A stretch of DNA of 45,065 nucleotides from Minisyncoccota bacterium (GCA_036517275.1 DATDXD010000009.1:1-45065); one strand, 5' to 3'. Counted from the first letter of the stretch, positions 8,797-45,065 are shown. The notes: a model not told the origin generated them from the letters alone. Numbers and translations are program-made.

Positions 8797-8827
8797 ACAA
8801 AAACAAAAGAGCGGCTAGCGCCGCTCT
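8797..8827 (-). terminator. Intrinsic terminator after the SLT-like gene
   Basis: Minus strand forms AAGAGCGGC-GCTA-GCCGCTCTT followed by TTGTTTTTGT. It overlaps the TAG stop at 8815-8817. Confidence 0.7.
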
Positions 8828-9945
8828 TGCACAAAACTTTTTTCAAATTCTTCCAAAATTTTCCGTGTTTCTCTGTATTTTTTTATAAAATTCTGAGTTT
8901 CTTTTGGAATACGTTTCCCTTGCAGAAAATTCAAGGCTCTTCCCAAACCCCCATTATGGGCAACAATGGCCGCTTCTTCATTTCTTTTTTCTTTTGACAT
9001 TTGGGCGAAATTCGTGTCAGCAAGACAAACAGCGGATTTAATAGAATTTTTCATGTTGGCGGTGCCACTTTCAAAATCAGCTATCAAACCAACTTCAGGA
9101 TACTTCCCACGAACTAAATCATATGTGCGAATTTTTTTACTATTCATAAATTGCATGAGTCCCCGAGCGCCGTCGGAACTTATTGAATAATAAAACGCTT
9201 TTTCTCCGTTACGCGCGATATGCGCCAAAAATTTTTTTATTGCGTATCGCGAATTGTTAAAAAATTCTCCATCGTCCATTTGTTCAATTGTACCCAAAGC
9301 CATTATTGTTTCGTCTGAAAAAACCTCGCACAAAAGTTTCTGCGGATACGCTTTAGATTTTGCGCCTGTTTTGCAAAGCTCCCGCCGAGATTCTTCAATA
9401 ATCGCCCGATAAATTACCAAACCCTTTTTTGTAAAATATTCGTCTTGAAAAAAATCAGAATAAGGCGCGTAAAAAAGGTCGCGGGGAGAAGTTCTTTTAT
9501 TTTCCAAATGAAGATGGCGAGAATCCCAAACAATAAGACTTTCATGATTTTGTTTATCGTAAATGCTAAATTCCAAACGAGTTACGCCAAAACCGGCAAT
9601 TCTTTTGACATCAAAATTAGAAACCGTGGACACGCCCGTGTCTTTTACTTTAAATTTAAAAGATCCGTCAGACAAAGATTTTGGCACAACAACTTCCAGT
9701 TTTATCGGTATCAAGTGTCCGTTTTTGAGAGAATACGCTATGAGTAAAATTTCCCGCGAAACTATTCTGGAACTTTTTCCTTTTCCAACAATTTCAAAAA
9801 AAACACGATCTTTTTCTAGCATCTTTCTGGCTTCCAAAAATTTTTGTTCAAAAACATTTGGATCAATTCCTTGGGTATAAACACTTTCCGTTAAAATCAG
9901 TAACACCATTAAAACAACCGACGCAAACAAAATAACTTTTTTCAT
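8815..9945 (-). CDS. Secreted protein with a C-terminal lytic transglycosylase (SLT/GH23-like) domain
   Basis: 376 aa with a signal peptide. EKAFYYSISSDGARGLMQFM matches the SLT pattern E-x13/14-GLMQ. The downstream AAIVAHNGGLGRA resembles the AYNAG box. Confidence 0.6.
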   Translation of the reverse strand: MKKVILFASVVLMVLLILTESVYTQGIDPNVFEQKFLEARKMLEKDRVFFEIVGKGKSSRIVSREILLIAYSLKNGHLIPIKLEVVVPKSLSDGSFKFKVKDTGVSTVSNFDVKRIAGFGVTRLEFSIYDKQNHESLIVWDSRHLHLENKRTSPRDLFYAPYSDFFQDEYFTKKGLVIYRAIIEESRRELCKTGAKSKAYPQKLLCEVFSDETIMALGTIEQMDDGEFFNNSRYAIKKFLAHIARNGEKAFYYSISSDGARGLMQFMNSKKIRTYDLVRGKYPEVGLIADFESGTANMKNSIKSAVCLADTNFAQMSKEKRNEEAAIVAHNGGLGRALNFLQGKRIPKETQNFIKKYRETRKILEEFEKSFVQERR

Positions 9946-9961
9946 TTTTCAAACTCCCATA

Positions 9962-9980
9962 TCTGTATTTAGAATACAGA
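9962..9980. promoter_or_regulatory. Perfect 8-3-8 palindrome in the 5' region of the SLT-like gene
   Basis: TCTGTATT-TAG-AATACAGA lies between the upstream terminator and the GGGAG SD of the gene starting at 9945. It could be an operator or an RNA hairpin. Confidence 0.35.
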
Positions 9981-9994
9981 AAAGCACAAAGGTG

Positions 9995-10020
9995 TCAAAA
10001 AACCCCTTAAAACAAGGGGC
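9995..10020 (-). terminator. Intrinsic terminator after the M50 protease gene
   Basis: Minus strand forms CCCCTT-GTTTT-AAGGGG followed by TTTTTTGA. It overlaps the stop at 10007-10009. Confidence 0.55.
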
Positions 10021-10795
10021 TTTTGAAAAGTTGAAGAGAACTAATTAGTGAGAAATTGGAGGAATTGTAAATAACAAAAAAAGCAACCAACATGCTCACG
10101 GTTACCGCCATGCAAGCAAAAACAAATACAACCGTCTGTAAATTGTTCATGGGATTTTTTAAAAAAAGTGGTAACAATGAATCATCTAACTCTTGTTCTT
10201 GAGCCAAATTTTCAATTGGTTTTTCTTTTTTATTTACAATATATGACCTTATAAACCTCGCTTCCGGCAACATCAAAGTCCAAAAAATAACAAACATAAA
10301 AAGGCCAAAATTAAACAACATTACCATACCTCCAGCTATTGCTCCCAAGTAAAATACCCACAAACCTATTTTACTTGGCAAACGAGGCAATGTTGAGACT
10401 TTGAGAACCAACCAACCATCCAAGGGGAACATTGGAATTAAATTAAAAACATTAACAAAAAGCACCCAGCAAACCGCGTGAGCATACAACAAATTTCCAC
10501 TTATTTGCCAAAGAATACCGAATGGTATCGCAAGCAATGAGCCAATGGCTGGTCCGCAAAGGGCAATATAACCGTAAGAAAACGCGTCTTTTGGATCGGA
10601 ATCAAATTGAGTAAATCCTCCTAAAATGGAAAAATAAAAACCTTTTGTTTTAATCCCAGCAAGTTTCGCGGCAAAAATATGACCATACTCGTGAACAGCA
10701 ATAGTTAACATTAACAATAAAGACAGTTTCCAACTATTAAAGAAAATAGCCAAAACAAAAAATGTAGCTAAGGCGGACCCAAATTTTTGAAACAA
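10007..10795 (-). CDS. Site-2 protease family (M50) intramembrane zinc metalloprotease
   Basis: 262-aa polytopic ORF with HExxH (HEYGH) in a TM segment and the second family motif NLIPMFPLDG. Confidence 0.85.
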   Translation of the reverse strand: MFQKFGSALATFFVLAIFFNSWKLSLLLMLTIAVHEYGHIFAAKLAGIKTKGFYFSILGGFTQFDSDPKDAFSYGYIALCGPAIGSLLAIPFGILWQISGNLLYAHAVCWVLFVNVFNLIPMFPLDGWLVLKVSTLPRLPSKIGLWVFYLGAIAGGMVMLFNFGLFMFVIFWTLMLPEARFIRSYIVNKKEKPIENLAQEQELDDSLLPLFLKNPMNNLQTVVFVFACMAVTVSMLVAFFVIYNSSNFSLISSLQLFKSPLF

Positions 10796-33652: not shown

Positions 33653-33922
33653 TTATTCATTTTCTAATTCTACGAATTCTTCGATAATCAAAGTGTTGTT
33701 TGTTGATACCAATAAAAATACTTTCCCGCCATCTTTTTTTGTTATTGTGGCAGATCTGGAAGAGATTTGGTACTCAATGTCTAAAATTTGTGCTGATTGA
33801 ACATCTTCCCACTTCCTTAGGACATGTCCGATTTCAGATTCACAAAGCACAACATTTACTCTTTTCATAAACACCTTAAAATAATCTACGGGCAGATTAG
33901 CAAACATTGAAAACAAAATCAA
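33653..33922 (-). CDS. Hypothetical small protein
   Basis: 89-aa track ORF. The true start may be the internal Met at 33868 (MKRVNVVL...), which is preceded by AAGGTG. No domain recognised. Confidence 0.35.
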   Translation of the reverse strand: MILFSMFANLPVDYFKVFMKRVNVVLCESEIGHVLRKWEDVQSAQILDIEYQISSRSATITKKDGGKVFLLVSTNNTLIIEEFVELENE

Positions 33923-35865
33923 GATACTGTATATTTACTTTGCTGGAACGAAAAACTGAAAAACTTTTGATAGTGGCAGTTACCCCCTCGTTTTTGGAAA
34001 AAGGGGTTTTTCCATATTCCACTGAAATTGCAAAATTGCGTAGCGCAAACCCTTGGTACCAAAGAAATACTTATGTTGTAGAAAAAAATCAGCAAATTCA
34101 ACTTTCACATTTTCTGCGCAAACTCGCCGAATTGGGATATAGCAAGGTTTGGGAAACTTCGCGCAAAGGAGAATTTTCACAAAGAGGAGGAGTGGTGCGC
34201 GTGTTTCCAATTAATGCGGAACAAATTTACACAGTTGAGTTTTCTGGAAATTTGGTGGAAACAATAAACACAGAGGAAATAAAGTCCAAGATCAAGGGGC
34301 AAGAAAAAAAAATTTTTCGTTCCAACCTCCAACTTCCAACCTCCAACTTCCAAATTGGCGATTATGTCGTTCATATTGACCACGGCATTGGAATTTTTGC
34401 TGGTGAAGATCCGCCAACTGGCGGAGATGATTTTGTTCTTGAATACGCAGCGGGAGACAAATTATTTGTCCCAAAAACAGAAACACAACGAATAACGCCT
34501 TATTTAGGACTCAAAACTCCGCGGATATCGCGCTTGGGAACTCCAATTTGGTCCATCACAAAAAAGAAAGCCAAAGAAGATATTGTGGAATTTGCCAAAG
34601 AACTTCTCAAAATTTTAGCTAAAAGAAAATTGGTAAAACGTCCACCTTACCAAACATTTCCAGAGCAAGAAGATGAGTTTGTGGCAAATTTTGAACACAT
34701 TGATACACCCGACCAGCAAAAAGCCATTCTGGAAATTTTTTCCGACATGGAAAGATCTGTTCCAATGGACAGGGTTTTAACAGGCGATGTGGGATTTGGA
34801 AAAACCGAGGTTGCTCTGCGTGCCGCGTTTAAAACAATTTTAAATAACAAACAGGTAGCGCTTATTGCGCCAACCACAATTTTGGCAGACCAGCATTTTG
34901 AGGTCGCCAAAAAACGTTTAGAACAATTTGGGGTAAGCATTGCTAAAGCAAGCCGGCTTGAAGAAAATTATGAAATTAAAAAAATTTTTGAAAAAGCCAA
35001 AAATGGAAGTCTGGATATTTTGATTGGAACACACAAACTTTTGGGAAAAGGTTTGGAGTTTAAAAATTTGGGACTTTTGATAATAGATGAGGAACAAAAA
35101 TTTGGGGTCGCCCACAAAGAACATTTTAAAAAAATAAATCCGGTAATTGATATTTTGACGCTTTCAGCCACCCCAATCCCGCGCACATTGAGCCAAGCAC
35201 TTTCAGGAATTACAAACATTTCACGCATAGAAACCCCGCCTTTGGGAAAAATGACAGTACAAACATATGTTCTGCCAAAAAATAAAAAAATTATAAAAGA
35301 CGCGATAAAATACGAACTTTCCCGAAACGGACAAATTTATTTTTTGGCAAACAGAATTCACAAGATGCCCCAAATATTAGAAGAAATAAAGTCGCTCAAA
35401 ACAAAAGTGAAAGTCGGAATACTGCACGGCAGGATGGGAGAAAAAAATATTATAAAAACCATGCATGACTTCAGAGAAAAAAAATTCAACCTTTTGCTTT
35501 CAACCACAATTATAGAAAATGGTTTGGACATTTCCGAAGCAAATACTTTGATTGTTGAGGACGCCACAAAACTCGGACTCTCGCAGGCGCACCAGCTTAG
35601 AGGAAGAATCGGCAGAGGAACAAAAGAAGCGCACGCGTATTTTTTGTATCCAACACAACACCTCAAAGAAAAAGCCGCTCTGCGCCTTGAAGCGCTGGAA
35701 AGATATTCTTGGTTGGGAGCAGGAATTGAAATAGCAAAACAAGATCTTGAAATACGCGGAGCGGGCAACATTTTGGGTAAAGCTCAAAGCGGAGTCGCAT
35801 ACAAAGTCGGACTCAATCTATACTTCCAACTTTTGGAAGAAACAATTAAAGAGTTGGGGTCTTAG
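33907..35865 (+). CDS. mfd: Transcription-repair coupling factor (Mfd), short form
   Basis: 652 aa. UvrB-like N-terminal piece (GEFSQRGGVVRVFP). CarD/TRCF RNAP-interaction domain (IGDYVVHIDHGIGIF...GDKLFVP). SF2 translocase motifs GDVGFGKTEVA, IIDEEQKFG, LSATPIPRT and the TRG-like LSQAHQLRGRIGRG. The protein ends shortly after the translocase. The TTG start is uncertain. Confidence 0.85.
   Translation: MKTKSRYCIFTLLERKTEKLLIVAVTPSFLEKGVFPYSTEIAKLRSANPWYQRNTYVVEKNQQIQLSHFLRKLAELGYSKVWETSRKGEFSQRGGVVRVFPINAEQIYTVEFSGNLVETINTEEIKSKIKGQEKKIFRSNLQLPTSNFQIGDYVVHIDHGIGIFAGEDPPTGGDDFVLEYAAGDKLFVPKTETQRITPYLGLKTPRISRLGTPIWSITKKKAKEDIVEFAKELLKILAKRKLVKRPPYQTFPEQEDEFVANFEHIDTPDQQKAILEIFSDMERSVPMDRVLTGDVGFGKTEVALRAAFKTILNNKQVALIAPTTILADQHFEVAKKRLEQFGVSIAKASRLEENYEIKKIFEKAKNGSLDILIGTHKLLGKGLEFKNLGLLIIDEEQKFGVAHKEHFKKINPVIDILTLSATPIPRTLSQALSGITNISRIETPPLGKMTVQTYVLPKNKKIIKDAIKYELSRNGQIYFLANRIHKMPQILEEIKSLKTKVKVGILHGRMGEKNIIKTMHDFREKKFNLLLSTTIIENGLDISEANTLIVEDATKLGLSQAHQLRGRIGRGTKEAHAYFLYPTQHLKEKAALRLEALERYSWLGAGIEIAKQDLEIRGAGNILGKAQSGVAYKVGLNLYFQLLEETIKELGS
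34304..34355 (+). repeat. Low-complexity slippery tract inside mfd: A9T5 followed by 5 tandem heptamers TCCAACY
   Basis: A9 at 34304-34312, T5 at 34313-34317, then TCCAACC TCCAACT TCCAACC TCCAACT TCCAAAT at 34321-34355, encoding SNLQLPTSNFQ in the linker before the CarD-like domain. Confidence 0.9.
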
Positions 35866-38198: not shown

Positions 38199-38316
38199 TC
38201 CTTCCTCCCTTTTCTTCAAATTTTTGGACTTGAACTCCGAGATAAACTTAGCATACAAGTTTCGGGTTTGTCAATATCACACCAAAAAATCTTTTGTGTT
38301 ATAATTTTTTTATTCT

Positions 38317-40785
38317 ATGGCTAAAAACAAGGAGACTGAAAAAGAAAATATATCAGAAGTTGGTACTCTGGAACCACGAGAGATTGTTGAGGAAATGAAG
38401 GAATCATATTTGGATTACGCGATGTCAGTAATTGTGGCGCGCGCTCTTCCTGATGTCAGAGACGGCTTAAAACCTGTGCACCGCAGGGTGCTTTTTGCAA
38501 TGCATGAAATGGGACTTTCGCACCAATCCAAAACCAAAAAATCCGCGACAGTTGTGGGAGAAGTTATGGGCAAGTACCACCCACACGGCGACACCGCCAT
38601 TTACGATACCCTTGTCAGAATGGCTCAAGATTTTTCTCTGCGTTATCCGCTTGTTCAAGGACAAGGAAACTTCGGCTCAATAGATGGCGATTCCGCCGCC
38701 GCAATGCGATACACCGAGGCAAAAATGTCCGGCATTGCTTCTGAAATGCTGCGCGATATTGAAAAAGAAACAGTCAATTTTGTTCCAAATTACGATGGCA
38801 CCAAACAAGAACCGGCTGTTTTACCTTCGGCAATTCCAAATCTTCTTTTAAACGGTTCAATAGGCATAGCAGTTGGTATGGCAACAAATATACCTCCGCA
38901 TAACCTTACCGAGGTTGTAAGCGCCACGCTTCATCTTTTGCACAAACCAAAAACAACAGTAGAAGATTTAACTGAATTTGTAACTGGACCGGATTTTCCA
39001 ACGGGAGGAATGATTTTTAACAAAAAGGAAATTTTGGAAGCGTATACCACAGGACGAGGAGGGGTAGTAAACAGGGGTGAAGCGGAAATTATAGAACGCA
39101 AAAACAGCGAATGGCAGATTATTATCACCTCGATTCCCTATCAAGTAAATAAATCGGAAATGATTAAAAAAATGGCCGACTTGGTGCATGAAAAAAAGTT
39201 AGAAGGAATAAGAGATATTAGAGACGAATCCGACAAAGACGGTCTGCGCATAGCAATTGACCTAAAAAGAGATTCCTATCCTCAAAAAATACTAAATAGT
39301 TTATACAAACACACGGAACTTGAACGAACTTTCCATTTCAACATGATCGCGCTTGTGGACGGAATCCAACCGCAAACATTATCACTTAAAGGATTTTTGG
39401 AAGAATTTATAAAACACCGCAGAGTAATAATTGAACGCCGTGCGCGATTTGATTTGATGCGCGCACAAGAAAGAGAACATATACTTTTGGGTCTCAAAAA
39501 GGCGCTGGACAAAATTGACGCGGTAATACAAACAATCAAAAAATCAGAAAGCAAAGAAGACGCGCATAAAAATTTGATAAAAAAGTTTGACCTTTCGGAC
39601 AAACAAGCCACAGCAATTTTGGAAATGAGACTTTCAACTCTTGCCGGTCTTGAAAGGCAAAAAATAGAAGATGAGCTCAAAGAAAAACAGCGTTTAATCC
39701 GAGAACTTAAAGCCCTTTTGGGAGACCCTAAAAAAATAGACGAGGTTTTGGAAAAAGAACTCATAGAAGTGAAAGAAAAATATGGTGACCAGAGAAAAAC
39801 AAAAGTAATTGCCGGAGCCGCCAAAATAATTTCAACGGAGGACTTGGTGCCGGAAGAAGAAACAATTTTAATACTCACTCAAGGGGGATACGTAAAAAGA
39901 GTAAAACCCGCTGAATACAAAATCCAAAAACGCGGAGGCAAAGGAGTTATTGGTGTTACCACAAAAGACGAGGATGTGCCTTTGGAATTTATTTCTGGAA
40001 GCACTCACGCGGGACTTTTATTCTTTACCAACAGCGGAAAAGTTTTTGAAACCAAAATGTACGAACTTCCGGAAGGTACTAGACAATCCAAAGGAAAATC
40101 AATTGCCAATTTCCTTTCTTTGTCTGCGGATGAAAAAGTAACCGCAGTGCTTGCCGTACCCAAAGGAAACAAGGGAATAAAAAACTTTGTAATACTCGCA
40201 ACCCAACAGGGCATTATTAAAAAAGTGGCAGCGGAAGATTTTGCGGATGTCAGAAGATCCGGAATCAAAGCCATCAATCTTCAAAAAGGCGATGGTTTGT
40301 ATTGGGCAAAAATTATATCTACCGGTGAAGAAATTTTAATCTCTACAAGTAGGGGGCAGGCCATAAGATTTAAAGAAAAAGACGCAAGGGCAATGGGCAG
40401 AACGGCAAAAGGGGTACGTGCTATAAGACTTAAAAAAGGCGATGAAGTTGTTGGCATGGACGTTATCCCACAGGAAGCCAAAAAATTTGAAGTGCTTGCG
40501 GTTTCAGAATTGGGATATGGCAAAAAAACGTCTCTTACCCAATACAAAGTTCAGCGTAGAAGCGGTTCTGGAGTTAAAACAGTAAAAGTAACTCCGAAAA
40601 CTGGAAATTTAATTTTGGCTCAAATAGTTTGGGAGGACAAAGAGGAACTAATTGCGATTTCCAATAACGGACAAGTAATCCGCACAGCGCTTTCGCAAAT
40701 TCCATCACTTTCGCGCGCCACACAAGGGGTGCGAATAATGCGCCTAGAATCTGGGGACAAAGTAGCTTCGGTGGTGCTATTATAG
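38317..40785 (+). CDS. gyrA: DNA gyrase subunit A
   Basis: 822 aa with motifs [19 protein letters not shown], catalytic Tyr in AAMRYTEA, and a C-terminal beta-pinwheel with repeated G.G...L motifs. Confidence 0.97.
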
Positions 40786-40789
40786 AAGA

Positions 40790-41296
40790 ATGTCTCAAGA
40801 ATCATTTTTAAACCCAGATACAATTGTGGATGAATGGGATGTTCGTCCGGGGGAGGTTGTTGCCGACTTTGGCGCGGGTTCCGGATTTTTTTCCGTAGCT
40901 TTGGCAAAACGAGTTGGATACGCGGGAAAAGTTTACGCTTTGGATATTAGAGAGGAGGCGCTGGAAGCTGTTCGCTCCCGAGCAAAATCATTTAGACTTT
41001 TAAACATTGAAACAATTAAAGCGGATCTTGAACGCGAACGCGGTTCAACTTTAAAAAATGAAACAATGGATAAAATTGTAATCTCAAATATACTATTTCA
41101 AGCTGTAAACGGCCAAAGTATAATAATAGAAGAAGCGCGCAGAATATTAAAACCAAACGGATTGGTTTTTGCGATAGAATGGAAAGATAAAATAAAAAAA
41201 GAAGAAACTGAAAGATTATTTGAACTCGCGGGATTTAAAAAACACAAAGAATTCGTCGCGGGCTCGCATCATTATGGAATTATTTTTAAGAAATAG
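40790..41296 (+). CDS. Class I SAM-dependent methyltransferase
   Basis: 168 aa with SAM-binding motif I VVADFGAGSGFFSVALAK, post-I DIRE, and motif LKPNGLV. Confidence 0.75.
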   Translation: MSQESFLNPDTIVDEWDVRPGEVVADFGAGSGFFSVALAKRVGYAGKVYALDIREEALEAVRSRAKSFRLLNIETIKADLERERGSTLKNETMDKIVISNILFQAVNGQSIIIEEARRILKPNGLVFAIEWKDKIKKEETERLFELAGFKKHKEFVAGSHHYGIIFKK

Positions 41297-42607
41297 GTGT
41301 TGGAAGCTATGAATATCAACAAACTGCAAATAATATTAATCGGGGGGGCGGTGTTTTTAACGCTTATTGTTGTTTTAATTTTTTCCGGAGTTCTTCCGGG
41401 ACTAAAAGACAATACGCAAGAATCCGCAACACTTGAACTTTGGGGTTTTGACGACGATAGGGTTTGGGATCAAACGCTTCGCGCCCACAAAGATGAAAAT
41501 CCAAAAATAACCGTAAACTACAAAAGAAAAACTTTAGAAAACTTTGAGACGGAACTTTTAAACGCGATTGCCCGCGGAGATTCTCCGGATATTTTTATAC
41601 TTCCGTCCGAATATTTAAAAAAATTTGAGGACAAAATTTCTTCCGCTCCCCCAATTTTGATTACCGAGCGAGAAGTAGAACAACAATTTGTGGAATCAGC
41701 AAAACAGTTTCTAACGCCCCAAAAAAAAGTTTTGGGAATACCTTTATACGCGGATCCTTTGGTCCTTTACTGGAATAAAGACATATTTACACGAGAAAGC
41801 ATCGCTTTACCACCAAAAACTTGGGACGAGTTTCTCCAAATATCCCAAAAAATAACCAAAAAAGACAATGCCGGAAATATTACAGTTTCAGGAGCCGCGC
41901 TTGGGAGGGCAAAAAATATAAAAAACGCCCCAGCAATTTTAACGGCGCTTTTTTTGCAGTCGGGAGAAAAAATTATAAATGAAGAAAATGAAGTTGTGTT
42001 GGGTGAAAGCGTGCGCACCGGAGAAGTCAGCTTGCGCCCCGCGGAATCCGCTTTGAGATTTTTTAGCGAGTTTGCCGACTCCGGCAAAACATCGCATAGC
42101 TGGGTGTCTTCCCTACCAGAAGCGGAAGATTTGTTTCTTTCCGGAAAATTGGGAATGTATATTGGATTTTCTTCAGAATACGAGCAGATGCGCAAAAAAA
42201 ACCCACACACGGCAATAGGCATGGCGCATCTACCTAACCTTAATTCGGAAAAAGCAACATACGGATCAGTTTTCGCGCCAGTAGTTCCTTTGGCTTCGCA
42301 AAACTACACGGCATCGTGGCAATTTATAAAATTTTTAACTTCAAAGGAAATATCCAAACTTTTTTCTGACTCCCAAATGAGCGCTTCCCCCAGAAGAGAC
42401 TTATTTTCTTCGTATCAAAGTGATTCTGTTCGTTCGGTTTTCGCAGAAAGCAACTTATCGCTTAAAAGTTGGCCAAATCCAAATCCAACAAAAACAAACG
42501 CAATATTCTCTGAACTTATGGAAGATATGGCTCGGAAAATTGACACAATGCGGGCGCTTCTTACAAAAGCTGCGAATAAAATTAGAGAAATAAACAAAAC
42601 AAGGTAA
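41297..42607 (+). CDS. Membrane-anchored extracellular solute-binding protein (ABC SBP family 1-like), orphan
   Basis: 436 aa with an N-terminal TM anchor instead of a lipobox. The pattern LELWGFDDD...SPDIFILPSEYL...YWNKDIF...PKTWDEF is typical of sugar-type SBPs. No permease or ATPase is adjacent. The real start may be the ATG at 41309. Confidence 0.65.
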   Translation: MLEAMNINKLQIILIGGAVFLTLIVVLIFSGVLPGLKDNTQESATLELWGFDDDRVWDQTLRAHKDENPKITVNYKRKTLENFETELLNAIARGDSPDIFILPSEYLKKFEDKISSAPPILITEREVEQQFVESAKQFLTPQKKVLGIPLYADPLVLYWNKDIFTRESIALPPKTWDEFLQISQKITKKDNAGNITVSGAALGRAKNIKNAPAILTALFLQSGEKIINEENEVVLGESVRTGEVSLRPAESALRFFSEFADSGKTSHSWVSSLPEAEDLFLSGKLGMYIGFSSEYEQMRKKNPHTAIGMAHLPNLNSEKATYGSVFAPVVPLASQNYTASWQFIKFLTSKEISKLFSDSQMSASPRRDLFSSYQSDSVRSVFAESNLSLKSWPNPNPTKTNAIFSELMEDMARKIDTMRALLTKAANKIREINKTR

Positions 42608-43479
42608 TGCAAGAATCTTTAGCGCAACTTGTCACTTGCGGAATTGGTGAAGGCACAACATTTAAAGCCTGCACAATTTGCGATATTTGGGTTTTGGCAG
42701 ATAAAATCGTGAACTTTGTCTGGTTTTTGGCAACTCCAATTTTAATAATTATACTTATTGTTGGCGGATTTATTTATTTAACTTCTGGCGGAAATCCAAA
42801 AAAAACCGAGCAAGCAAAATCACTCCTTACTTCCGCGATTGTTGGAATTGTAATTTCCCTCGCTGCGTTTTTGATTGTGGATACGATTTTAAAAACATTG
42901 GTTCGTCAAGACTTCACATGGCCTTCGTGGAATACAATAACCACAAGTAGCTGCCCCAAGCCTCTTGAACCCACACCAGTTGATTTGTCTAAATTACCGA
43001 AGCCGATAATTTTAGGAAACGCCGGAACACTCGCATCAGAAGAAGAAGCCAGAAACGCACTTGAAGGATTTTCAGGAGTCGGAGAACGGGTAAGTATCAA
43101 TAAAAGACCTTGCGCTTGCTCCTTGCGAAACGATCCGCGATGCGCCGACTGCACAAATACCGCCGGTCTTCCCGCAAGCACGATTAACTATCTTCGTTTA
43201 CTTCAAGAATACTGTGCTTCGGGACAAATTTTAAACTGCAAATTTGTTCTTTCCGGCGGAACAGAATCTCATCTTCATTCCGAAAACACAAGACACGCCC
43301 CGGGAAATACAGTAGTTGATGTGGTGCCAAACACGCAAACCCAAGCAATTTATCAAGCGCTTATTAGTGCGGCGCAAAATATAACCACAACCGCAAGATG
43401 CGAAAACAGAGACAGTGAGACAATATCAACTTGTGCCGTACCTTCAACAAACCATATTCATTTTGAATTTAGACGGTGA
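42607..43479 (+). CDS. VirB2/TrbC-like (T4SS-pilin-like) membrane protein fused to a Cys-rich C-terminal domain with an LAS/M15-like zinc-peptidase motif
   Basis: 290 aa. The N-terminal roughly 100 aa have two TM helices flanking YLTSGGNPKKTEQAKS, like the three downstream paralogs. The C-terminal roughly 160 aa have about 9 Cys, RHAPGNTVVD (H-x7-D) and NHIHFEF (HxH). The start overlaps the SBP stop (TAATG). Confidence 0.5.
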   Translation: MQESLAQLVTCGIGEGTTFKACTICDIWVLADKIVNFVWFLATPILIIILIVGGFIYLTSGGNPKKTEQAKSLLTSAIVGIVISLAAFLIVDTILKTLVRQDFTWPSWNTITTSSCPKPLEPTPVDLSKLPKPIILGNAGTLASEEEARNALEGFSGVGERVSINKRPCACSLRNDPRCADCTNTAGLPASTINYLRLLQEYCASGQILNCKFVLSGGTESHLHSENTRHAPGNTVVDVVPNTQTQAIYQALISAAQNITTTARCENRDSETISTCAVPSTNHIHFEFRR

Positions 43480-43491
43480 TATAATATCCCT

Positions 43492-43770
43492 ATGCTCCAA
43501 AATCTACTAGCCGCGATCACAAACCCGCTAAAAGCCGACGATATACCGGCACTTATTTTAAGTATTGCGGAGTTTGCTCGCAATATTGGCCTCCCTATTG
43601 CTATAATATTCATAGTCTATAACGGCTTTTTGTTTGTATCCGCCAGAGGAGACGAAAAAAAGCTTGAAACGGCAAAAGCGGGCATCAAATGGTCTTTAAT
43701 AGGCGCCGCGCTTATTGTGGGAGCCAGCTTTTTGGCAGAAGCGGTTGTTAACTTTGTAAAAGAATTTTGA
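43492..43770 (+). CDS. VirB2/TrbC-like mini-pilin paralog
   Basis: 92 aa with TM1 (LPIAIIFIVYNGFLFV), loop SARGDEKKLETAKAG, and TM2 (LIGAALIVGASFLAEAV). TGATATAAT ends 6 nt before the ATG. Confidence 0.6.
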   Translation: MLQNLLAAITNPLKADDIPALILSIAEFARNIGLPIAIIFIVYNGFLFVSARGDEKKLETAKAGIKWSLIGAALIVGASFLAEAVVNFVKEF

Positions 43771-43793
43771 TATAATAGAAAGGTCGAATTAAG

Positions 43794-43821
43794 TATTTAG
43801 TAATTAGTAGTTAGTATTTAG
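43794..43821 (+). repeat. Four tandem heptamers TANTTAG in the 5' leader of the third pilin gene
   Basis: TATTTAG TAATTAG TAGTTAG TATTTAG at 43794-43821, between the TGATATAAT -10 element (43768-43776) and the ATG at 43826. Confidence 0.85.
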
Positions 43822-43825
43822 AACA

Positions 43826-44164
43826 ATGAATAAAAATTTATTAAAAATAGCCGTAAGCGCAGGGGCAATTTTGCCGCTTTTTGCGTTCGCGGCGGATGTA
43901 TTCACTGTATTAGACACAGTTGAAGACGTTATCGCGCGCATAATCCCGATTATAATGGCAGTTGCCACAATCATATTTTTGTGGGGAATTGTTATGTATA
44001 TCACAGCGGCGGGAGACGAAAAGAAGGCGGCAACGGCAAAATCATACATTACATCCGGTCTCATTGGCCTATTCTTCATGGTCGCGATTTGGGGAATAGT
44101 TAAGGCATTGGTTGCCACATTCGGCGTAGGCGGAGAGGGTATCCCAGTAGGACCCGGAAGATAA
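43826..44164 (+). CDS. VirB2/TrbC-like mini-pilin paralog with signal peptide
   Basis: 112 aa. Signal ends ...LFAFA/AD. Core IIFLWGIVMYITAAGDEKKAATAKSYITSGLIGLFFMVAIWGIV. C-terminal tail GIPVGPG. Confidence 0.6.
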   Translation: MNKNLLKIAVSAGAILPLFAFAADVFTVLDTVEDVIARIIPIIMAVATIIFLWGIVMYITAAGDEKKAATAKSYITSGLIGLFFMVAIWGIVKALVATFGVGGEGIPVGPGR

Positions 44165-44200
44165 GTTGCGCGATAAATAAAAACAAGCTAACATTTATTT

Positions 44201-44572
44201 ATGAAAAAACCATTGGCTATTTTAACTGTTTGGATGTTGCCTATTTTAGTATTTGCGCAAACAACTGGCAAACTAAGCGGAACAGCCGTTGGTAATTGGC
44301 TTGATATTATATTTGATATTGTAGGATTTGCCTCTTATCTTTTGATGGGAATAGCAACGGCAGTATTTTTGTGGGGAATGGTTAAATATATAATGGCTGG
44401 AGCGGATGAAAAAGCCAAAGAAGCGTCAAAGGGCTATATAAAAGCTGGAATAATCGGTTTGTTTTTATCTCTTGCGGTTTGGGGAATAGTATACGCAATA
44501 GCTAGAACATTTGATGTGGCAGATAGCGGAATACCGTTTGGTCCTGGGAACTTAGATCCGAGAAAACAATAA
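44201..44572 (+). CDS. VirB2/TrbC-like mini-pilin paralog with signal peptide
   Basis: 123 aa. Signal ends ...LVFA/QT. Core AVFLWGMVKYIMAGADEKAKEASKGYIKAGIIGLFLSLAVWGIV. C-terminal tail GIPFGPG. Promoter-like TTGCGC, 17 nt, TAACAT, then 6 nt to the ATG. Confidence 0.6.
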   Translation: MKKPLAILTVWMLPILVFAQTTGKLSGTAVGNWLDIIFDIVGFASYLLMGIATAVFLWGMVKYIMAGADEKAKEASKGYIKAGIIGLFLSLAVWGIVYAIARTFDVADSGIPFGPGNLDPRKQ

Positions 44573-44648: not shown

Positions 44649-45065
44649 TTACTTTGGAAAGTAGACTAATTTCCCCTTTCTTTCTTCTTCTTTTATCTTG
44701 TCTGCCGCACTTGTGGCAGCGCTTTCAACTGCTTTCCGAAAATTCCGATTTTCACCAACGCCAACCGCCATCTCAAGATCTCCTTGAGATAACGTGACGT
44801 AGACGACAGATTCCGGATCAGAATAGCACTGCCGACGATACCCGTCGTAATTTGGGCACCGTAAACGGTCTCGAAGGAAAAACTTTATCTCAACGGTAAG
44901 TGTTCCTTCGACATTTTGCCTGGTGACCTTAAATCCTTTGTCACCCAGCACCCGAGACACTTCCTGCCGCGCCAGACTGGCTTTCTCCGCAGTCTGGTCT
45001 TGCGACAAAACTGTCGAATCGGCAGAACCTCGATCGCCTCGCTGGCTACCAAACAGTCCATTGAA
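44649..45065 (-). CDS. Hypothetical protein, 5'-partial (the frame stays open to the window edge)
   Basis: The reading frame is open from 45065 down to the stop at 44649. The track Met is a TTG, and upstream codons (FNGLFGSQRGDRGSADSTV) have no stop. The region is markedly more GC-rich than its neighbours. No family recognised. Confidence 0.45.
   Translation of the reverse strand, partial: FNGLFGSQRGDRGSADSTVLSQDQTAEKASLARQEVSRVLGDKGFKVTRQNVEGTLTVEIKFFLRDRLRCPNYDGYRRQCYSDPESVVYVTLSQGDLEMAVGVGENRNFRKAVESAATSAADKIKEEERKGKLVYFPK

Follow-up and report, generated by a model that had tools for sequence, protein, structure and literature searches.

We analysed a 45,065-nucleotide stretch of DNA from a Minisyncoccota bacterium (GCA_036517275.1, DATDXD010000009.1:1-45065; hereafter the window), which carries near its end a tandem array of genes for proteins of a type IV secretion system (T4SS) pilin family. 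A preliminary description made from the sequence alone had reported four such genes on one strand. We found four open reading frames (ORFs) exactly where it had placed them, and the loop peptides it had quoted are present in the translations. These genes are referred to here as P1 to P4, and two more, P5 and P6, lie beyond the end of the window on the contig L001.

42607-43479, plus strand: P1, ORF of 290 amino acids; hairpin at about residues 24-98, Cys/Pro-rich linker, C-terminal domain at residues 126-290
43492-43770, plus strand: P2, 92 amino acids; minimal pilin-family protein with neither signal peptide nor tail
43826-44164, plus strand: P3, 112 amino acids; pilin-family protein with Sec signal peptide and GIPVGPG tail
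44201-44572, plus strand: P4, 123 amino acids; pilin-family protein with Sec signal peptide and GIPFGPG tail
L001:11074-11328 and L001:11331-11585, outside the window: P5 and P6, 84 amino acids each; PF18895

Several metagenomes yielded longer contigs, with 4 mismatches in 2459 bases, that extend past the window end, and on them P4 is followed in order by a terminator, a gene on the minus strand, P5, P6, four tRNA genes, rbfA and infB. Because these near-identical contigs carry two more PF18895 genes, the array consists of six genes and not of the four first described; the end of the window cuts it. The samples with near-identical contigs include Rifle aquifer assemblies. The four tRNA genes (Leu-tag, Gly-gcc, Leu-taa and Cys-gca; L001:11590-11937, minus strand) stand directly after the last pilin gene. 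Two features lie between P4 and P5:

44594-44637, no strand assigned: intrinsic terminator, a GC-rich hairpin with a U-tract, between the convergent P4 and minus-strand genes
44649-45065, minus strand: 3' part of the gene for a signal-peptide protein of 169 amino acids, cut by the window end; full length at L001:10449-10958

The terminator folds with a predicted energy of -29.8 kcal/mol (z = -5.1), and none of 200 shuffled sequences was equally stable. The 169-residue protein has two conserved Cys and no match in Pfam. Its homologues hold the same array position in L011 (205 amino acids), one of the two closest genomes with the locus, and in L098 (182 amino acids), and for this reason it probably belongs to the system.

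The array was assigned to a family by profile searches. All six paralogues score above the Pfam gathering score of PF18895 (T4SS_pilin; 26.6 bits), with 41.2, 46.0, 35.0 and 37.8 bits for P1 to P4 (E values from 1.8e-10 to 1.5e-8) and, beyond the window, 39.4 bits for P5 and 48.9 bits for P6. The matches of P1 to P4 are far beyond what chance would give, and the match in P1 covers residues 27-93. The membership in a pilin family that had been proposed for the four genes is thus borne out. A likeness to VirB2/TrbC pilins had been proposed as well, and here the outcome was divided: a weak profile similarity to PF04956 (TrbC/VirB2) was seen, with scores under the gathering score of 27.9 bits (best in P2 with 19.2 bits and E 0.0014, then P5 with 16.5 bits and P1 with 13.8 bits), and P3 and P4 had no PF04956 match in the Pfam scan. 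Among related fusion proteins the best PF04956 E value was 3.4e-6, again with scores below the family cut-off, and NCBIfam gave sub-threshold matches only, to a mycoplasma 'pilin-like conjugal transfer protein' model. These profile comparisons support a placement of the array proteins in the T4SS-pilin family typical of Patescibacteria, with what appears to be a distant likeness to VirB2/TrbC. Two hydrophobic helices, a short basic loop, small size and, in some members, a Sec signal peptide are also shared with the TrbC/VirB2 pilins. Differences from them are the lack of an adjacent virB operon, the four of six paralogues without a signal peptide, the monoderm nature of the organism, and the absence of any sign of cyclisation or of a pilus.

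A loop rich in Lys and Arg between two hydrophobic segments was found by Kyte-Doolittle hydropathy in each of the six paralogues. For P1, an AlphaFold2 model forms a helical hairpin from residues 24-58 and 64-98, with a block-mean predicted local distance difference test (pLDDT) of 87-98 over residues 31-90, so the two-helix hairpin with a basic loop is found as first described. The P1 hairpin weakly matches the Aeropyrum conjugative pilus 8dfu (Foldseek, probability 0.60). By inspection, signal peptides are seen in P3 (ending LFAFA, with AD following) and P4 (ending LVFA, with QT following), and none in P1, P2, P5 or P6; the P1 orthologues in L011 and P0003 do start with a signal peptide, unlike P1. 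The distribution of signal peptides and GIPxGPG tails (both in P3 and P4, neither in P2) and the extra C-terminal domain of P1, 165 residues long, likewise agree with the preliminary description. We considered the GIPxGPG tail as a family-wide signal and rejected it: it occurs in five of 269 pilin ORFs and in this lineage only, and is therefore not a general processing motif.

The spacing of the genes bears on how they are expressed. The ATG of P1 overlaps the stop codon of the preceding gene, which encodes a solute-binding protein (TAATG), and the gaps from P1 to P2, P2 to P3 and P3 to P4 are 12, 55 and 36 nucleotides. Given this tight spacing, the start/stop overlap and the one strong terminator, P1 to P4 form an operon, possibly with internal promoters, and the independent regulation that had been suggested for the paralogues is not upheld. 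The separate promoters on which that suggestion was built fared differently from gene to gene. The whole window has four copies of the extended -10 motif TGNTATAAT (1.6 expected), three of which, at 43477, 43599 and 43768, fall in the array. The one at 43599 lies inside P2, and the other two are placed as follows:

43477-43485, plus strand: extended -10 motif TGATATAAT, 6 nucleotides upstream of the P2 ATG; possible internal promoter
43768-43776, plus strand: extended -10 motif TGATATAAT, preceded at 17 nucleotides by TTAACT; possible P3 promoter

Own promoters are therefore plausible for P2 and P3. No comparable motif was seen ahead of P4, and a generic promoter scan gave 12 hits where 8.4 +/- 3.5 were expected, which is not above chance. 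The position of the first motif, only 6 nucleotides before the ATG, suggests that the P2 mRNA is leaderless. Another extended -10 motif, at 38297-38305, lies only 11 nucleotides before the ATG of gyrA, and no Shine-Dalgarno sequence is visible ahead of P2, P3 or P4. Such placement of -10 motifs near the gyrA and P2 start codons, together with the missing Shine-Dalgarno sequences, suggests leaderless or very-short-leader mRNAs in this organism.

We then compared orthologues with paralogues. Identities were measured against L011 and L012, the two closest genomes with the locus. P1 is 65% identical to its orthologue in L011 and 44% in L012, the lowest single value; P2 is 69% identical in both; P3 reaches 74% (L011) and 86% (L012); P4 has 67% and is absent from L011; P5 and P6 have 68% and 78%. 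The neighbouring solute-binding protein (59-72%) and methyltransferase (55-64%) are no better conserved. Pairwise identity among the six paralogues of the array is 22-50%, with P3 and P4 at 41%, and from its absence in L011 P4 appears to be a lineage-specific duplicate of the P3 type. Because orthologues, except P1 in L012, are far closer to each other than paralogues are, and diverge no faster than the neighbouring genes, the paralogues are best seen as specialised, non-redundant parts.

The setting of the array is conserved as well. The following genes precede P1 and form, with gyrA and the pilin genes, a block on one strand that spans 38317-44572 in the window:

40790-41296, plus strand: S-adenosylmethionine (SAM)-dependent methyltransferase, Pfam Methyltransf_31/25/11; homologue at the same position in related gyrA loci
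41297-42607, plus strand: membrane-anchored family-1 extracellular solute-binding protein, Pfam SBP_bac_1, 91.2 bits

We screened 80 loci around GyrA homologues (L018-L097) with local hidden Markov models. The block of gyrA, SAM-methyltransferase, SBP_bac_1 and then three to six PF18895 genes, all on one strand, was present in 50 of them, in genomes whose GyrA identity goes down to about 56-60% (Giovannoni-, Nomura-, Vogel- and Sungiibacteria and others). Most loci without the block end too soon, and three with full flanks are truly without it. In 50 of the 80 loci, and also in L015, the gene that immediately precedes the first pilin gene encodes the solute-binding protein, and the distance from the stop of this gene to the first pilin start is mostly -4 to +25 nucleotides. 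Five or six pilin genes are found in 38 of the 50 arrays. Gene order is the same in L011, L012 and L098, and a distant P1 homologue (P0005) has the same layout, the opposite-strand secreted protein included. No ABC permease or ATPase was found near the block. The published survey of Patescibacteria pilins (PMC12102498) contains neither 'solute' nor 'gyrA' as a word, and we found no paper that combines a solute-binding protein or gyrA with a pilin array, in a literature search that was incomplete and so gives weak evidence of novelty.

Arrays often start with a long gene, in which the hairpin is followed by a C-terminal domain as in P1 or preceded by N-terminal fn3-like domains (L040, L082). 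Long array members of 377-538 amino acids with a C-terminal pilin hairpin were observed at L040:14431-16047, L082:14367-15860 and L015:5617-6906 and 9092-10225; their large N-terminal parts have fn3 or purple-acid-phosphatase-N-like matches. It seems from these architectures that the pilin hairpin is widely used as an anchor for displayed domains. Some genes in the middle of an array (L065:15421-16194, L049:15144-15830; 228-257 amino acids) hold two PF18895 stretches each, that is, tandem fused pilin domains. The large ORFs that follow the pilin array of L015 were considered as T4SS genes and rejected, since they encode FtsH, RNase III, SMC and a PA14 protein. In some Giovannonibacteria an ORF of 570-582 amino acids stands upstream of gyrA (L018:1560-3308, L019:1666-3378, L025:142-1854), and on the basis of a motif only, the Walker A sequence GPTGSGK[ST], it resembles PilB/GspE-type pilus ATPases.

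The C-terminal domain of P1 sets this gene apart from the rest of the array.

42982-43476, plus strand: P1 C-terminal domain, residues 126-290 (165 residues), motif TGGTE..H..H..D...HxH

A word-indexed search with P1 residues 101-290 returned six proteins only, all with a pilin part and the same domain, and an exhaustive profile search with the domain recovered 405 representative clusters. PF18895 is N-terminal to the P1-type domain in 73 of the 90 homologues examined; two homologues (P0018 and P0073) have an SLT domain in its place, directly N-terminal to the P1-type domain. The conserved residues are C169, C182-T183, (S/T)GGTE at 216-220, H224, H230, D238 and H283-x-H285. C169, T183, E220, H224, H230 and D238 are present in all 66 domain sequences compared, and C182, G217, G218, T219, H283 (94%) and H285 (98%) in 94-98% of them. 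No Pfam family covers the domain, no SLT domain was matched in P1 in the Pfam scan, and PDB sequence searches with P1 and with profiles of its C-terminal domain gave noise only.

Structure prediction was more informative. A first AlphaFold2 model of P1, from a 6-sequence alignment, had a pLDDT of 57 and was replaced by a 90-sequence model with a mean pLDDT of 85, in which most 10-residue blocks of the C-terminal domain reach 87-96. In a Foldseek search of the PDB with this model, Hedgehog N-terminal domains account for all of the 25 best matches and for about 30 of the top 35 (probability up to 0.98, E values of 0.02-0.4, TM-score of 0.42-0.51 on target length for most). The N-terminal signalling domain of Hedgehog has the fold of zinc DD-peptidases (LAS). 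A Foldseek search against viral structures was uninformative. Using a human ShhN sequence checked against PDB 6e1h_C, hhalign pairs the family pattern ITGGTE-GH--HGPG-P-VD with SHH so that H230 and D238 fall on the zinc ligands H140 and D147 of SHH, and the terminal HIH of P1 mirrors SHH H180-I-H182. We call the P1 domain LAS/Hedgehog-like at the level of the predicted fold, with no match to a curated peptidase family. Within the wider group of LAS peptidases and Hedgehog proteins (DD-carboxypeptidase, VanX/VanY of M15, lysostaphin of M23, ShhN), the fold-level match of the model is to ShhN, IhhN and DhhN, and the shared residue order is (T-x-G..E)..H..H-x(n)-D ... H-x-H.

The location and relatives of the domain point to the cell wall. 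The positive-inside rule, applied to the hairpin, puts the domain outside the cell; the domain is Cys-rich, with a Cys-rich N-terminal subdomain. The gene at L030:7403-8536, in a metagenome-assembled genome (MAG) of Sungiibacteriota, is the first after the solute-binding protein gene and encodes PF18895 with an SLT domain (53.6 bits). This gene holds the place of P1 in its operon, but the wall-hydrolase domain that it encodes is of another kind. From the extracellular, Cys-rich nature of the P1 domain, its SLT fusions and the SLT domain encoded in place of it in the L030 operon, we infer a role at the wall, and a cell-wall enzyme is the best reading of the domain. Opening peptidoglycan locally for a trans-envelope structure is the task of VirB1 (SLT) and of Gram-positive two-domain enzymes such as PrgK, TcpG and CwlT, and P1 would share it with them, in addition to the SLT links provided by the two fusions and L030. 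P1 differs from these proteins in having no SLT, CHAP or NlpC/P60 domain and in not standing next to virB4, and its anchor is a pilin-family hairpin where they have a single helix or a signal peptide. No report of a pilin-peptidase fusion was found, again in an incomplete search of the literature that is weak evidence of novelty. Two further observations concern this domain. In P0010 (1718 amino acids), profile positions of about 17-48 (AR..L...GI.VNK..C) are matched 16 times in a row with a period of about 57 residues, so this N-terminal sub-motif also occurs in the form of a repeat. An Azambacteria MAG carries a lone gene for a pilin with a P1-type C-terminal domain (L078:2409-3428, minus strand; 339 amino acids, signal peptide), upstream of gyrA and off the array.

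Pilin arrays of this kind have been described before. A survey that used PF18895 and PF04956 on 3,035 genomes of Patescibacteria reported 441 arrays, each with 2-11 pilin genes in tandem or split by one non-pilin gene, and with a mean identity of 25% (Quinonero-Coronel et al., 2025; PMC12102498). The four genes, one minus-strand gene and two genes described here, at 22-50% identity, correspond to that definition. The same study found VirB2-like proteins together with VirB4 in 1,948 assemblies, with a pilin gene near virB4 in 1,135 of them, so that in about 40% of such assemblies the two are not neighbours; since so many pilin genes lie apart from virB4, missing machinery nearby is a common situation for the PF18895 family. 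The study also noted that most Patescibacteria with VirB2 homologues are without a recognisable VirB1, for which other hydrolases might substitute, and suggested that the arrays give versatility towards different host strains. In the part of its Table S1 considered here, VirB4 is marked present for most of the Paceibacteria and for the two Giovannonibacteria listed there. In Southlakia epibionticum, a series of pilin genes lies inside an essential T4SS cluster (Wang et al., 2023; PMC10633639), and the tables of that study list SEML1_0014-0019 as six tandem PF18895 genes next to T4SS genes, all scored essential. A 2025 review treats the Patescibacteria pilin system as an exception to the pilus-less T4SS of Gram-positive bacteria.

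The locus in the window is thus an instance of the Patescibacteria pilin arrays already described. Less ordinary are the P1 fusion and the class-wide operon that joins the array to a gene for a solute-binding protein. With the Southlakia array and its relatives it shares PF18895, co-oriented small genes (six in each), low identity among paralogues, tolerance of one non-pilin interruption and a chromosomal location outside mobile elements. Whereas the Southlakia array abuts T4SS genes, none were found here, either within the window or beside the related loci. The array here follows gyrA, a methyltransferase gene and a solute-binding protein gene, and begins with a gene that carries an enzyme-like domain.

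Taken together, these results make it probable, with a real margin of doubt, that the locus is a VirB2-like pilin operon encoding six non-redundant subunits of a T4SS filament that acts in trans, with P1 as a pilin-anchored wall enzyme. Both ends of each inserted hairpin would face the outside of the cell, and the basic loop would lie in the cytoplasm. The hairpins would be extracted by a VirB4-powered T4SS of monoderm type and assembled into a putative surface filament or conduit, in which each paralogue would have a part of its own as a major or minor subunit; going by published data at class level, we assume that the genome encodes this partner T4SS elsewhere. By analogy with Southlakia epibionticum, the filament may serve a host-dependent lifestyle. 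The extracellular domain of P1, with a His/Asp/His site of zinc type, would most likely cut peptide links of peptidoglycan and in this way either open the cell's own wall to the structure (the role of VirB1) or act on the wall of the host. We put forward only tentatively the stronger proposal that P1 is a pilin-anchored hydrolase of a new LAS/Hedgehog-like zinc peptidase family (at least 405 clusters, no Pfam model; SLT in a sister lineage) that supplies the missing VirB1-type function, and that the filament, in view of its close tie to a solute-binding protein and the lack of T4SS genes nearby, is part of a dedicated apparatus for host contact or nutrient capture and not an accessory of a conjugation-like machine.

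Several results count against this interpretation. We know of no filament seen for this locus in any Parcubacterium. No VirB4-, VirB6- or VirD4-type domain was found among the 40 window ORFs scanned against Pfam, as the preliminary description had noted, nor in 4 kb beyond, and a screen by motif only found no VirB4-like ATPase within 10 kb on either side of gyrA in the 80 related loci. Within the window the lack is partly an effect of the contig edge, since the array is cut and the window ends 0.5 kb after P4. The TrbC Pfam scores of the array members are all below threshold, and a PDB search with the pilin profile gave no pilin match, which means that a likeness to the solved VirB2/TraA pilins is undetectable by sequence. 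For the P1 domain, Peptidase_M15*, M23 and HH_signal had no match in 40 domain sequences even at E <= 10, the fold search supports LAS with E values of 0.02 or more plus the motif, and the hhalign comparison with human ShhN is not significant (E 0.04-0.07). The domain also departs from LAS/Hedgehog proteins in its His-to-Asp spacing (H230-x7-D238, 7 residues where SHH has 6), in its extra Cys-rich N-terminal subdomain and in always being tied to a pilin hairpin or SLT domain.

The absence of T4SS genes near the block in any locus would also fit a complex that needs no T4SS at all, in which the hairpins and the co-translated solute-binding protein form a membrane or surface receptor, uptake system or display scaffold and the proteins are pilins in name only. 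Such a complex would account for the solute-binding protein gene directly upstream in 50 of 80 loci and in L015, usually with overlapping or nearly abutting codons, and for the family members fused to large extracellular domains (fn3-like in L040 and L082, SLT in L030, the P1 domain here). However, a permease or ATPase to make use of the solute-binding protein is likewise not nearby, PF18895 genes form part of an essential T4SS cluster in Southlakia, 1,135 assemblies have a pilin gene close to virB4 (PMC12102498), and five or six divergent two-helix paralogues fit the subunits of a filament better than a transporter. We regard this explanation as unlikely. We give even less weight to the idea, raised in the preliminary description, of independently regulated and possibly interchangeable surface subunits, which could then vary antigens or host range in the way proposed for the VirB2 paralogues of Bartonella and Anaplasma. 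Those genera also have several divergent pilin genes in a row, and the low identity among the paralogues, the extended -10 motifs ahead of P2 and P3, the lineage-specific P4 and the versatility towards host strains suggested in PMC12102498 all speak in its favour. The Bartonella and Anaplasma genes, however, form part of virB operons in intracellular pathogens and are believed to vary antigenically, whereas each paralogue here keeps a distinct positional orthologue, with identities of 65-86% in five of the six cases and as low as 44% for P1 (in L012), and changes no faster than housekeeping-type neighbours. Order and number are stable over deep divergence, the short gaps and common terminator indicate an operon, and all six Southlakia paralogues are individually essential.

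The nature of the P1 domain can be questioned separately. It may be a non-catalytic binding module, a ligand or adhesin on a pilin anchor comparable to the signalling form of Hedgehog, in keeping with structural matches that are best to Hedgehog ligands and not to bacterial peptidases, with the lack of any peptidase family matched by sequence, and with other array-head genes whose fn3-like domains are probably adhesive. Yet E220, H224, H230, D238, H283 and H285 are invariant or nearly so in 66 diverse members, as an enzyme would require, two proteins join the domain to SLT, and in L030 SLT stands in its place in the operon, so that a binding module seems to us a rather doubtful reading. Small two-helix proteins with a charged loop beside a putative wall hydrolase also look superficially like holins and an endolysin. 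A phage-derived lysis cassette of holin-like proteins with a membrane-tethered endolysin is nevertheless extremely improbable, as all six small genes belong to PF18895, the locus is a core chromosomal one next to gyrA that is conserved across Paceibacteria with no surrounding phage genes, and the viral structure search gave nothing informative; we rejected the prophage reading on the conserved synteny.

A large part of bacterial diversity belongs to the Patescibacteria, and how they attach to and use host cells is poorly understood. To our knowledge, the T4SS-like system with its pilin series is the only such apparatus shown to be essential, and this in one Saccharibacterium only. The locus described here is not a new kind of system, and the array itself is of modest interest. 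It does offer handles for Parcubacteria/Paceibacteria: a stable, class-wide operon in which the apparatus can be sought, evidence for the paralogues as specialised parts rather than variants, and the pilin-enzyme fusion P1 as a candidate for the missing wall-opening enzyme that could be expressed and assayed without cultivation. The parts most worth pursuit are the family of pilin-enzyme fusions and the class-wide coupling to a solute-binding protein. If the proposal for P1 is true, the VirB1-type function missing from most Patescibacteria would be supplied by a pilin-anchored hydrolase.

The rest of the window is ordinary chromosome. It encodes DEAD and UvrD-type helicases, FtsEX, RF, MurJ, LepA, a class II ribonucleotide reductase, FtsZ/FtsA, HisRS, Pth, Mfd, S1 and GyrA, along with RNase P RNA and two tRNAs. 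Its GyrA is 87% identical to that of one Patescibacteria MAG and 76-78% identical to those of several Candidatus Giovannonibacteria, and from these identities the source is a Giovannonibacteria-like Parcubacterium (class Paceibacteria). The Mfd/TRCF-like gene (33907-35865, plus strand) is short, with 652 amino acids and UvrB-interaction, CarD/RID and helicase domains only. Another possible wall hydrolase is encoded at 8815-9945 on the minus strand, a protein of 376 amino acids with a sub-threshold SLT match (E 9.6e-4).

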